From an uncultured delta proteobacterium (lineage in GTDB: Bacteria > Desulfobacterota > Binatia > UBA9968): a stretch of 64,000 nucleotides of DNA. A program made the translations under genes and the position numbers. This document shows, piece after piece, positions 54,052 to 64,000 of this stretch (position 1 is the stretch's first letter; every line of letters starts with the position of its first letter). The notes beneath the pieces were generated by a model. That model searched no databases. It saw nothing but the letters and a program-made list of their open reading frames with translations, and was not told the DNA's origin. Location of the stretch: contig CAVUZH010000003.1 in assembly GCA_963745835.1 (NCBI GenBank), positions 416,001 to 480,000 on the forward strand, given 5' to 3'.

Positions 54052-55616
54052 ATGTCAAATAACGGTAATAACGATAAATCTCTCGAATCGTGGATCTGGG
54101 ATGCCGCGTGTTCGATCCGCGGCGCAAAGGATGCCCCGAAGTTCAAGGAATACATCCTGCCGCTGATCTTCGCCAAGCGGCTGTGCGATGTCTTCGACGA
54201 CGAGTTGAACCGCATCGCCAAAGAGGTCGGCTCGCGCGCCAAGGCGTTCAAGCTCGTCAAGCACGACAAGAAGCTCGTCCGCTTCTACCTGCCGCTCGAG
54301 CCGCAGAATCCCGACGATCCCGTCTGGTCAGTCATCCGCAAGCTCACCGACAAGATCGGCGAGCAGCTGACGACCTACCTGCGCGACATCGCCGATGCCA
54401 ACCCGCTGCTCAAGGGAATCATCGACCGAGTGGACTTCAACGCCACGACCCACGGCCAGCGCGATATCGACGACGACCGCTCTCAGCAATCTGATCGAGC
54501 GGATCAGCGAGAAGCGCCTGGGTCTCAAGGACGTCGAGGCCGACATCATCGGCCGCAGCTACGAGTACCTCATCCGCAAGTTCGCCGAGGGCAGCGTCTC
54601 CAGCGCCGGCGAATTCTACACGCCCACGGAAGTCGGCCTGGTCATGGCGCGCATCATGGACCCCGAGCCGGGCATGAGAGTCTACGATCCCTGCTGCGGC
54701 TCGGCGGGACTGCTCATCGAGTGCGAGTTGGTGCTGCGACGAAAAGATGAACTGCGCTCGCGCAAGAAGTACGCGCCGCTCCAGCTCCACGGCCAGGAGT
54801 ACATCGCCGGAAACCTGGGCGATGGCCAACATGAACATGATCATCCACGACATGGAGGGCCAGATCGAGATCGGCGACACGTTCAAGAACCCGAAGTTCC
54901 GCAAGGGCAACCGCCTCCAGACCTTCGACCGCGTCGTCGCCAATCCGATGTGGAACCAGGACTGGTGCAAGGAAGACGACTACGACGCCGACGAGCTGGA
55001 CCGCTTTCCGAAGGGCGCGGGCTTTCCCGGCCGCAAGGCCGACTGGGGCTGGGCGCAGCATCATCCTCGCCTCGCTGAACGACGCAGGCCGGGCCGCGAT
55101 CGTGCTCGACACCGGCGCCGCCTCGCGCGGCTCCGGCAACGCCAACAAGAACAAGGAAAAAGACGTGCGCCAATGGTTCGTCGAGCAGGACCTGATCGAA
55201 GGCGTGATCTACCTGCCCGAAAATCTGTTCTACAACACCACCGCGCCGGGCATCATGCTGTTCCTGAACAAGGCCAAGCCGAAGGACCGCAAGGGCAAGC
55301 TTTTCCTGCTCAACGCCAGCCAGCGAGTTCGACAAAGGCGACCCGAAGAACTATCATCTCCGACGACGCCATCGCAGCGAATCGCCGAGACGTTCAAAGC
55401 GTGGCAGGAAGAGGAGAAATTCGCCGCATCGTCACGCGCGAGGAGATCGCGAAGAAGGATTACAACATCTCGCCCAGCCGCTACATCCACACCGGCGAAG
55501 CGGACGAGTACCGGCCGATCGCGGAGATTGTGGAGGAGTTGGATGAGCTCGAAGAAGAGGCATCCGAGGTTAGCGCCGCACTTCGTCGTATCTTACATAG
55601 CCTACACGCGAGCTAA
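54052..55616 (+). CDS. hsdM: Type I restriction-modification methyltransferase subunit M (several apparent frameshifts)
   Basis: [15 protein letters not shown]-domain, [16 protein letters not shown], motif [10 protein letters not shown], motif [26 protein letters not shown]; pieces in ORFs 54052, 54395, 54747 and 55102. Confidence 0.93.
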
Positions 55617-56898
55617 ATGGAAAACGGTTTGGATATTGCTGAAGGCTGGCAACGACGGCCACTCCGAGAGATTGGAGACGTTGTTACAGGTCGCACTCCC
55701 AGCACCAGCCGAACTGATATTTTATGGCGGGGACTACAACTTAGTCTCACCCGCGGATTTGAATGGTAACAAATACGTAGGCTCCGCCCATCGACGCCTA
55801 ACGAGAGCTGGCTTTGAGCAATGCCGCGCGTTGCCAAGGGACGCTGTCCTCGTAGGCTGCATCGGAAACGTGGGAAAGCTCGGGATGGTTGCTGACGAAT
55901 ATACCGCATCCAATCAGCAGATAAACGCGATTGTCTGTTCTTCCGAGTACGATCCGCATTTCATATACTATCGCCTTTACAAGGATCGAGATCGTTTGGA
56001 AAAGGCCGCCGTTAAGACCACTGTTCCAATCCTAAATAAGACTAACTTCGAGAGCTTTGAGGTAGACGTTCCATGTCTGGCGGACCAGCGAAAGATTGCG
56101 GCGGTGTTGGGGCTGGTGCAACGGGCGATCGAGCAGCAGGAGCGGCTGATCGCGCTGACCGCGGAACTGAAAAAGGCGCTTCTCCACAAACTCTTCACCG
56201 AAGGCCTCCGCGGCGAACCACAAAAACAAACCGAAATCGGCCCCGTGCCGGAGAGTTGGGAGGTGGCCGAGCTAGGAAAGCTTGTCAACCTCTTCGGCGG
56301 CTATGCGTTCAGGTCAGAAGATTCCGTACCGATCTCGAATACTCAGCTAGTGAGGATGGGCAACCTCTATCAGAATAAGCTCGATCTGACGCGAAGTCCT
56401 ATTTTTTACCCGGATGATTTTACCCAGCAGTACGCTCGTTTCGTCCTAAAGCAGGGAGATCTAATCATGTCGCTGACGGGGACGAGTGGGAAAGAAGACT
56501 ACGGTTTTACGGTTGAAATAAAACACGTTCCCAAAACTCTCTTGCTTAACCAGCGCGTTGCGAGGGTCGACATTACCTGCAGTAAACTGGTTAAAGATTT
56601 CCTTTTTTATTTTTTGTTGTCTCGAAAGTTTCTCAATCAGCTGTATCAAACTGCTAAGGGTATGAAACAAGCCAATCTCTCAACGTATGCTATGAAGGAA
56701 TTGAAAGTTCCTGTTCCCTCCGTACGTGAACAGAAAAACATCGCAGATTATTTCAGAGCGATTGATCAGAGGAATGACATTCATCAAAGACGAGTAGATA
56801 TGCTACAGGATCTCTTCCGTACCTTGTTGCACCAACTGATGATGGCGCAGATTCGGGTCCACGATCTAAACCTTTCAGAGTTGGAGTCAGACCTATGA
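55617..56898 (+). CDS. hsdS: Type I restriction-modification specificity subunit S (apparent frameshift near 55720)
   Basis: ATG directly after the hsd[34 protein letters not shown]. Two TRDs (NQQIN; LNQRV) each followed by conserved helices ([31 protein letters not shown]). Confidence 0.92.
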
Positions 56899-61050: not shown

Positions 61051-61066
61051 CGATATAGCTTGACTG

Positions 61067-64000
61067 ATGGCCAATCCCACCGAGTACAAGACCGTTCAGG
61101 CCCGCATCCTGGCCTACGCGCAGGAGATCGGCTGGACGTATGTGCCGCGCGAGAGGCGGAGCGGCGGCGCGGGTTTGATCCTGACGGCGCCACGCCGGAA
61201 GAGCGGGCCCGCACGGCGTCTCTCTATTCTTCGGCGACCTGCTCCACGCCCAGGTTCGCGCCTTCAATCCGAAATACAAAGAAGCCGAGGGCGCGCTGGT
61301 CGGCGAGTTGCAGCGGCTCCACGCGGACATCTCCGGCAACCGCGATTTCCTGACCGCTCTGCGCAACCAGGGCAAGTTTTTCTCTGCGGAGGAGAACCGC
61401 GAGCTGGACCTGACGCTGATCGACTACGGCGACCTGGCTCGACCCGCGAAACGATTGGCGCAACGTCTACGAGGTGACCGAGGAGTTCTACGTCCACAAC
61501 GGCCGCTACGGCACGCGCGAGGATGTGGTCTTTCTCATCAACGGCATCCCGGTGCTGGTGATCGAGTGCAAGAACGCGACCAAGGACGAGGCGATCGCGC
61601 TCGGCGTCGATCAGATCCGCCGCTACCACGCGAGACGCCGGAAGTGATGGTGCCGCAGATGCTCTTCACCGCCACCGAGGCGATCGGCTTCGCCTACGGC
61701 GTGACCTGGAACATGGTCCGCCGCAACATCTTCAACTGGAAGCACGAGGAGAACGGCAACCTCGAAGCAAGGTCAAGAGCTTCTGCGCCGTGCCGCATCT
61801 GCTGCGCTTGCTGAAGGACTTCATCCTCTTTGCCGAGAAGGACGAGGAGCTGCAGAAGTTCATCCTGCGCCAGCACCAGACGGCGGCCGTGGAGAGGGTG
61901 GTGGCGCGCGCGCTGGACCCGAAGCGCGCGCGCGGGCTGGTCTGGCACACGCAGGGCAGCGGCAAGACCTACACGATGATCAAGGCCGCCGAGCTGCTGT
62001 TCAAGGCGCCGCAGGCGGAGAAGCCGACCGTCCTGGTGATGATCGACCGCAACGAGCTGGAAGACCAGATGCTCAGGAACCTGGCGGCGGTCGGGCTGGG
62101 CAACGTGGCGCACGCCGACCGCATCGCGGAGCTGAACAAGCTGCTCAAGGAGGACTACCGCGGCATCATCGTCACGATGATCCACAAGTTCCGCGACATG
62201 CCGGCGGACCTCAACACGCGGACGAACATCTTCGTGCTGATCGACGAGGCCCACCGCACGACCGGCGGCGACCTCGGCAACTACCTGATGGCCGGCCTGC
62301 CGAACGCGACGTTCATCGGCTTCACCGGCACGCCGGTGGACAAGACCGCCTACGGCAAGGGGACGTTCAAGACCTTCGGCGGCGAGGACGACAAGGGCTA
62401 CCTCCACAAGTATTCGATCCGCGAGAGCATCGAGGACGGCACGACGCTGCCGCTCTACTACAACCTCGCGCCCAACGAGATGCTCGTGCCGCACGAAGTG
62501 ATGGAGAAGGAGTTCTGGCTCTCGCCGAGACCGAGGGCATCGCCGACATCGAGGAGCTGAACAAGATCCTCGACCGGGCGGTGAACCTGAAGAACTTCCT
62601 CAAGGGCGAGGAGCGGGTCGACAAGGTGGCGCGGTACGTGGCCGAGCACTACGTCGAGAACGTCGAGCCGCTGGGCTACAAGGCGTTTCTGGTGGCCGTG
62701 GACCGCGAGGCGTGCGCCCTCTACAAGGAGGCGCTCGACGAGTACCTGCCGCCGGAGTATCTCGGAGGTCGTCTACACCGGCAACAACAACGACCCGCCG
62801 CAGCTGAAGAAGTGGCACCTCGACGAGAAGAAGGAGAAGCAGATCCGCAAGGACTTCGCCAAGGTCGGCGAAGACCCGAAGATCCTGATCGTCACCGAGA
62901 AGCTGCTGACCGGCTTCGACGCGCCGATCCTCTACGCGATGTATCTCGACAAGCCGATGCGCGACCACACGCTGCTGCAGGCGATCGCGCGGGTGAACCG
63001 GCCCTACGAGAACGAGCGGGAGGAGATGGTCAAGCCGCACGGCTTCGTGCTCGACTTCGTCGGCATCTTCGACAAGCTGGAGAAGGCGCTGGCGTTCGAC
63101 AGCGACGAGATCAACGCGATCGTCAAGGACCTCGGGCTGCTCAAGCAGCTGTTCAAGGCCAAGATGGAGAGCAAGGCGCCGGAGTATCTGGCGCTCGTCA
63201 CGCAGGACTTCAACGACAAGGACGTGGACAACCTGATCGAGCACTTCCGCGACAAGGAGCGGCGCAAGGAGTTCTTCAAGGAGTACAAGGAAATCGAGAT
63301 GCTCTACGAGATCATCTCGCCGGACGCGTTCCTGCGGCCGTTCATCGACGACTACGCGACCCTGTCGTCGATCTACGCCGTGGTCCGAAAGGCCTACGCA
63401 AAGAAGGTGTACGTCGACAAGGCGTTCCAGCGGAAGACCAACGAGCTGGTGCAGAAGCACATCGGCACCACGGTCATCGAGCAGTGCGACAAATTCGTGA
63501 AGCTCGATCGCGCCGCCATCGAGACGATCAAAAAGAGCGAGGAAGGGGAGGCGGTCAAGGTCATCAATCTCATCAAGTCGATCGAGAGAACGGCGGAGGA
63601 GAACAGCGACGATCCCTTCCTCGTCGCCCTGGCGGAGCGGGCGAGGGCGGTGCAGGAGAGCTTCGAGGACCGGCAAAGCAGCACGGCAGAAGCGCTGGCC
63701 GAGCTGCTTAAGGAAATCGAGAGGAACGAGGAGCGCAAGAAAACAGACGGCGAAGGGCCTGGACGCCATGACCTACTTCGTCCTGTGCAAGCTCACCGAC
63801 GACGGCATCCCGAACCCTGAGATCGCCAGCAGGAAAGTGCGCGGGCGTTCGCCAAGTATACCAACTGGCGGTGCAGCGAGGCTGAGCTGCGCGAGGTGCG
63901 CAAGACAGGTGACTTTCGCGCATCATCGCCGAGGAGGAAGACCTCGAAAGGTGACAGCAGCGGTCGAAGCCTTGTTCACTCTTCTGCACAAGGCTCCGGC
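61067..64000 (+). CDS. hsdR: Type I restriction endonuclease subunit R (apparent frameshifts; runs to window end)
   Basis: Nuclease [18 protein letters not shown], Walker [55 protein letters not shown]. Confidence 0.93.

Follow-up and report, generated by a model that had tools for sequence, protein, structure and literature searches.

Whether a type I Thoeris module placed inside a restriction-modification (R-M) operon of type I acts as a guard of that operon, as its partner or as a mere passenger is the question raised by a locus of an uncultured delta proteobacterium (assembly GCA_963745835.1). The window, i.e. the whole stretch of DNA analyzed, comprised 64,000 nucleotides of contig CAVUZH010000003.1 (positions 416,001 to 480,000). 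A preliminary description had proposed an R-M-guarding or layered abortive-infection module, with insertion into a hotspot as fallback. The fallback fitted best: an ordinary type I Thoeris module probably sits as a passenger in the cargo slot between hsdS and hsdR, in a type I R-M subfamily that is widespread, and the window is a new example of the known embedding of genes in type I R-M systems.

Open reading frames (ORFs) and profile matches placed seven genes in the order hsdM-hsdS-thsA-thsB-TIR2-SoFic-hsdR, all on the plus strand. Gene set, order, orientation and junctions were as described before: the hsdS stop and the thsA start shared ATGA (56895-56898), thsA and thsB were spaced by 2 bp, and thsB and TIR2 met in TAATG (58920-58924). 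The hsdMSR set was complete and the inserted genes lay co-oriented in its hsdS-hsdR gap, which confirmed their location in the PrrC-type slot. The spacing suggests that hsdS and the ths genes are co-transcribed and translationally coupled. GC content was 0.61 for hsdM, 0.63 for hsdR and 0.47-0.49 for the ths genes, against 0.53 for the whole contig.

Judged by its sequence, the module belongs to the canonical type I Thoeris systems; it closely resembles ThsA/ThsB of Bacillus cereus, and its catalytic residues are intact. The type I assignment was upheld by PADLOC and Pfam matches, and hidden Markov models recognized the SIR2-SLOG effector and both TIR proteins; the earlier word "complete" holds only after reading through indels. 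ThsA combined an N-terminal SIR2 with a C-terminal SLOG/STALD domain (PADLOC ThsA scores 285 and 220 bits) and was identical at 418/480 residues (87%) to an intact 483-aa homologue, P0001, which matched the B. cereus ThsA structure 6LHX (E 3.6e-150). Equivalents of the SIR2 Asn and His (BcThsA N112/H152) were present as N113 (TTNYD) and H153 (KMHGD). That of the TIR Glu (BcThsB E85) was present in both adjacent TIR genes, with codons at 58599 in thsB and 59263 in TIR2. The roles of these residues are described in passages of 10.1101/2022.05.07.491051 and 10.1101/2021.01.06.425286. The thsB product was identical at 133/188 residues to ThsB of the related locus L011, which matched 6LHY (BcThsB; E 1.7e-66); it scored equally to PDC-M50B, a candidate from the guilt-by-embedding method. 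TIR2 was identical at 115/185 residues to its L011 orthologue, which matched 8BTN (E 2.4e-43), a record labeled as TIR protein only and which we take to be Thoeris ThsB'.

With the type I Thoeris models, the module shared a SIR2-SLOG effector and TIR genes in one operon, the catalytic Asn/His and TIR Glu, and a thsB of the 6LHY family followed by a second, different TIR. Its hsdS-hsdR position is a presumed difference. Two-TIR operons are known, the B. dafuensis TIRs each covering different phages according to parts of 10.1101/2021.01.06.425286. The tagged ThsB1 of Staphylococcus aureus measures 42 kDa, whereas the window TIRs are both ~190 aa, so the staphylococcal trigger is not transferable to the window.

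Nested and free relatives of the module

A scan of GTDB genomes yielded 131 ThsA relatives, of which the best 80 were kept, the query favoring close relatives. In the tree, 33 of these 80 formed a clade with the window ThsA (support 100/100). Four of the 33 lay on contigs too short for assessment. Among the other 29, 16 were free, with no hsd gene nearby; three stood behind hsdS on contigs that end (L010, L012, L027), and in L040 ThsA stood behind hsdS within an R-M-S operon. The nearest ThsA rows of the window were all free (L023, L004, L003, L002), their neighbors being dndB, a conjugative region, an integrase-family gene or housekeeping genes. The same ThsA+ThsB+TIR2 cassette stood free in three loci (L006, L013, L025) and was linked to hsd genes in four (L010, L011, L020, L035). 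Both the free relatives and the occurrence of one cassette in either state argue for a passenger. In L005 (5538-13156), a free Thoeris of the clade carried three TIR genes behind an E2-ThiF-JAB gene, as in CBASS-type operons, with a Druantia gene near.

The HsdM/HsdR subfamily of the window was used by nine of 13 hsd-linked loci, which spanned five phyla (72-89% identity on the pieces tested). Ten ThsAs were nested in this subfamily, a group defined by context after the first tree had been seen. The approximately unbiased (AU) test rejected their union in a single clade (p 0.0013), which again favors the passenger reading. The R-M label changed seven times on the ThsA tree, a pattern in which repeated entry and old nesting with repeated exit are indistinguishable. 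In L028, the thsA and TIR frames were open although hsdS was reduced to its last 118 codons behind an oppositely oriented transposase-like gene, which likewise speaks for a passenger. Both TIR families were also found without R-M, and the TIR set behind nested thsA differed among loci.

Within the host genome, a homologue search found one ThsA copy; contig C13 carried a second, different type I R-M system. The search of 400 other genomes of the host's phylum gave no ThsA at E 1e-40 and hence no close orthologous locus. Plasmid records with ThsA numbered 103, all below 60% identity, and plasmids held no HsdM of the window's subfamily at E 1e-100. Viral contigs gave one distant ThsA, without an hsd gene.

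Cargo and putative recombination scars in the hsdS-hsdR slot

The R-M subfamily was sampled blind to Thoeris by means of 97 loci picked by HsdM or HsdR alone. Of at least 537 metagenome hits the best 80 were included; two loci came from genomes of the same family and 15 (15 of 17 hits) from four genome surveys aimed at the HsdM sub-clade rich in Thoeris. Many of the loci were short and some were near-copies. ThsA was present in none of the 97. The complete hsdS-hsdR gap was visible in 29, six of them near-empty, and slot content varied between related R-M loci: Gabija, Lamassu, SIR2-HerA, Hachiman, PifA, DRT1, PD-T7-3, GmrSD, Abi_C, RhuM, YhcG and SoFic were all encountered. The absence of ThsA from the blind sample and this variety of cargo support the passenger reading, and the window adds a clear case of type I R-M operons carrying swappable defense cargo. 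A cargo start codon overlapped the hsdS stop in seven of 38 non-Thoeris junctions, including SIR2-HerA in L089; since it is seen with unrelated cargo, the overlap marks the slot and not Thoeris. On this count, the notion of an ATGA overlap peculiar to Thoeris was rejected.

SIR2-HerA, another NAD-depleting system, occupied the same slot with an ATGA overlap in a genome of the same family (L089:4116-7701) and was again found in the slot in L185 (7689-11190). Small cargo ORFs formed a 13-member cluster (L090:2737-3291 and L090:9008-9724, with related members in L109, L115, L141, L155 and L162), two members of which were scanned and gave no Pfam or PADLOC match. An assignment of the largest unlabeled cargo cluster to HsdR stubs failed at the protein level.

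Of 51 loci with no less than 1.5 kb behind hsdS, 15 held additional hsdR 5' stubs or hsdS 3' tails among their cargo genes. As controls, the middle of hsdR was doubled in 0/44 loci, and two hsdM controls gave 6/108 and 3/96. In L183 an hsdR start was fused directly to an hsdS tail, following TIR and PDC-M50A genes, and in L019 and L035 hsd pieces lay directly before thsA. The central conserved block of the window hsdS (56080-56266) retained 80-93% DNA identity to related loci. Such stubs would fit recombination between conserved hsd ends; if the hsdS 3' end were carried along, the hsdS-thsA overlap would be explained. A passage of PMC12255303 describes the slot as a potential hotspot of recombination, and parts of Furuta et al. 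(PMC2853133) document long target duplications for R-M loci. Duplicated flanks are common to the insertions treated in those parts and to the window's relatives with their additional hsdS tails and hsdR stubs, but the former concern R-M genes themselves, whereas here hsd ends surround cargo and the window is scar-free.

The window itself was mosaic. From the hsdS tail through TIR2 (56802-59471) it aligned with L011 at 66% DNA identity, whereas hsdM and hsdR reached 81-84% with the same locus; from SoFic to hsdR it aligned with L114 at 78-82%. At the protein level, hsdR pieces were 81-86% identical to L011 HsdR, and a frameshift-aware alignment of hsdM to L089 HsdM gave 422/511 identical residues. 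Together with the overlaps of other cargo and the hsd stubs, the mosaic structure points to a passenger.

SoFic was identical at 295/357 residues to its counterpart in L114, which precedes hsdR with no Thoeris there. The six closest HsdMs of the window (L114, L155, L107, L109, L163, L171) came from loci without Thoeris, five of which carried SoFic or pieces of it; SoFic is therefore taken, on gene content, to be a probable separate passenger of the same slot. Two 35-bp palindromes between SoFic and hsdR occurred in only these two copies in the genome. Their motif was also present behind fic or fic stubs in L090, L107, L109 and L114, traveling with SoFic, and may be an operator or a recombination site. 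Short matches to the N-terminal 33-81 residues of SoFic, at 79-98% identity, lay in the same slot in L090, L098, L102, L105, L107, L109, L122 and L141; those of L098 and L105 were cut by contig ends, and the others resembled repeated truncations.

Embedding in this slot has precedents. The embedded defense genes of Payne et al. (guilt-by-embedding, 10.1101/2024.01.29.577857, in part) share slot and orientation with the window module, 96.7% of R-M-embedded genes being co-oriented there, and the same holds for DarTG2 in the RRDM island of enteropathogenic Escherichia coli as presented in a section of PMC12255303. The word Thoeris was absent from the main text of Payne et al., figures and supplements (Tables S3-8, Figs 6C-D, S8) being outside this check. 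Among the papers listed, titles and abstract openings reported neither the nesting of type I Thoeris within type I R-M, be it single or recurrent, although supplements may list embedded Thoeris, nor the triggering of Thoeris by anti-restriction proteins. The Thoeris survey 10.64898/2025.12.03.692087 contained neither "restriction" nor "embedded". PMC11350192 held no relevant passage on R-M-nested Thoeris, and passages of 10.1101/2022.05.03.490397 gave nothing further.

Passenger, partner or guard

As a passenger, the module would work as its homologues do. A phage protein would activate one or both TIRs, which would make 1''-3' gcADPR (glycocyclic ADP-ribose) from NAD+. This signal would bind the SLOG domain of ThsA, upon which ThsA filaments would form and the SIR2 domain would destroy NAD+, arresting the cell. 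Both steps are established for homologues, the second being matched here by the residues present, and activation of ThsA through filaments is treated in part of 10.64898/2026.03.01.708072. The genes would be read from the hsdM promoter, as their spacing suggests, so that R-M and Thoeris would be co-expressed and act in sequence, neither sensing the other. Judging from scars in relatives, the module may have come in, together with the hsdS 3' end, when conserved sequences of hsdS and hsdR recombined. Cloned B. cereus ThsA and ThsB alone protect B. subtilis, phage specificity being set by the TIRs (passages of 10.1101/2021.01.06.425286), and the S. aureus TIR pair is activated in vitro by the major head (capsid) protein alone (PMC12578639, in part). 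These precedents favor the passenger reading too. A layered defense, as proposed in the preliminary description, is plausible in the weak sense of two systems in one operon.

A number of observations weigh against a simple passenger. Nesting of thsA between hsdS and hsdR, for which a search of genomes had been suggested, did recur, in nine of the 29 assessable loci of the window's ThsA clade (L011, L017-L021, L028, L031, L035). It was found in none of 40 assessable loci among the 47 ThsAs outside (six with hsd nearby, 34 with none; seven too short). Nesting is thus clustered in one ThsA clade and is not random. Under a loose definition (hsd-linked or nearby), the counts were 13/29 and 6/40. 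A Fisher test on context was dropped because hsd-adjacent loci had been counted within the clade only and because kin are not independent. Six of the eight members of one starred ThsA sub-clade were R-M-linked, and seven of nine Thoeris-bearing HsdMs fell in one starred HsdM sub-clade; from this double clustering, the R-M/Thoeris pair has traveled together across phyla. With thsA directly behind hsdS, an ATGA-type overlap with the hsdS stop was found in seven of eight loci. In L183 (8469-10071, minus strand) the same two TIR families stood behind hsdS, the place of ThsA being taken by a PDC-M50A membrane protein of 152 aa; this locus shows an apparent effector swap and gives the strongest hint of a preference of the TIR pair for the slot. 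Finally, the window held no recombination scar, as would nevertheless be expected of a clean swap.

Part of this evidence would suit a selected partnership, in which Thoeris works alone but is retained inside the R-M operon for synergy through co-expression, e.g. by catching phages that escape restriction. Clustering within a single ThsA clade and a single HsdM sub-clade, over five phyla, and the overlap kept at most direct junctions would be expected of such a pair. In Streptococcus thermophilus, protection was improved when Thoeris and CRISPR were combined (part of PMC12322248). When the Thoeris-rich HsdM sub-clade was sampled blind, however, ThsA was found in 0/13 loci (hsdS visible in 9), so co-transfer of linked genes suffices for the clustering without selection. 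A partnership is therefore considered unlikely, if worth keeping in mind. Whether embedding affects function is a question left open by Payne et al. (main text of 10.1101/2024.01.29.577857), for which the same cassette nested in L011, L020 and L035 and free in L006, L013 and L025 offers a test set.

Guarding of the R-M system, the stronger of the earlier proposals, fared worse. In one form of it, a Thoeris lineage would have specialized inside one R-M subfamily as a signaling-based guard, a TIR sensing an anti-restriction protein or a blocked Hsd complex; the TIR pair would stay behind hsdS while the effector could be swapped (ThsA here, the small membrane protein in L183), and free copies would be escapees or watchers of R-M elsewhere in the genome. 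Such a lineage we regard as highly unlikely; if true, it would link TIR signaling to anti-restriction sensing. A guard in the manner of PrrC or Ronin, with one TIR monitoring the R-M complex or an anti-restriction protein and firing upon blocked restriction, is most improbable. Like PrrC of EcoPrrI and Ronin, the window has a cell-arrest effector beside hsdS; the slot shared with PrrC, the tight coupling to hsdS, the TIR pair of L183 kept behind hsdS with another effector and the hsd linkage of the exact three-gene cassette in four of seven genome loci could be expected of a guard. PrrC, however, occurs almost only as an embedded gene of type I R-M (10.1101/2024.01.29.577857, main text) and ronA always linked to hsdMS (part of 10.1101/2023.04.06.535777), both being restrained by hsd, whereas the window module belongs to a clade of which about half is free of R-M, has sensors of its own and shares its cassette with three free loci. 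Both TIR families occur outside R-M, the TIR set behind nested thsA is inconstant, and the ths frames of L028 are intact with a truncated hsdS. R-M guarding found no support in these counts, the Thoeris-free blind loci and the many other cargoes of the slot.

Frame breaks, neighboring genes and features

Frameshift-aware alignment located three indel breaks in thsA, two in thsB, three plus one in-frame stop in TIR2, three in SoFic and seven in hsdM, i.e. 18 indel breaks and one stop over five genes; hsdR had about eight more, and hsdS a single frameshift near its 5' end. In the same genome rpoB and rpoC were unbroken, so the damage is local and not genome-wide. Near-identical short-read contigs (four of nine listed runs, at low depth) showed indel differences from the window at the breaks 57478, 58437-58509 and 60271. 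Two contigs from two studies bridged the hsdS-thsA junction (56839-57124 and 56814-57103); one of the runs may be the source sample. We read the frame breaks as a poorly polished stretch and not as decay, given the high identity to intact homologues, the host amidohydrolase directly upstream being likewise split, and the contigs differing at breaks. That the locus is a decaying pseudo-operon which no longer works, as so many breaks beside intact rpoB and rpoC might suggest, is scarcely credible, the breaks being nearly all indels in genes that retain 62-87% identity to intact homologues.

Features of the locus in the window, with coordinates, strand and supporting matches
Feature	Coordinates	Strand	Evidence and remarks
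Best sigma-70-like site, candidate operon promoter	53837..53866	+	10/12 matches; weak evidence; upstream of hsdM
hsdM, type I methyltransferase	54052..55616	+	pieces match MTase_I, HsdM_N, N6_Mtase; indel-broken in assembly
hsdS, specificity subunit, two target recognition domains	55617..56898	+	Specificity_I E 1.4e-60
thsA, SIR2-SLOG (STALD) NADase effector, type I Thoeris	56895..58346	+	SIR2_2 E 1.6e-18; STALD E 7.2e-64
thsB, 190-aa TIR, BcThsB (6LHY) family	58349..58922	+	Pfam ThsB_TIR; PADLOC ThsB E 2e-34
TIR2, second TIR gene, ~190 aa, PDB 8BTN family	58922..59487	+	PADLOC ThsB E 1.5e-31; most damaged frame
SoFic-type Fic protein, HPFSDGNGRTGR motif	59634..60718	+	PADLOC SoFic E 1.4e-57
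Two 35-bp palindromes, GATATGTC-N19-GACATATC	60767-60801, 60988-61022		between SoFic and hsdR
hsdR, restriction subunit	61067..64000 (to window end)	+	REase_I; indel-broken

Six sigma-70-like sites were found against 5.3 +/- 2.6 in shuffled sequences, so the promoter count is at chance level. No promoter-like plus-strand site was found between 55357 and thsA, the scan being weak for this host and an internal promoter possible, and terminator counts were likewise at chance level. The locus was flanked by apparent host metabolic and transport genes, with no integrase among the ORFs listed around it. Just past window position 64000, after hsdR, followed a YgjP-like metallopeptidase gene of ~100 codons, typical of the R-M subfamily; R-M loci with embedded defense genes likewise carry a metallopeptidase gene behind hsdR. 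The copy behind the window hsdR seems shortened. Upstream of hsdM, at about 53668-53826, lay a dispersed repeat of ~155 bp, resembling a repetitive extragenic palindrome (REP) or a miniature inverted-repeat transposable element (MITE), of which well over 100 related copies were present on most contigs of the genome.

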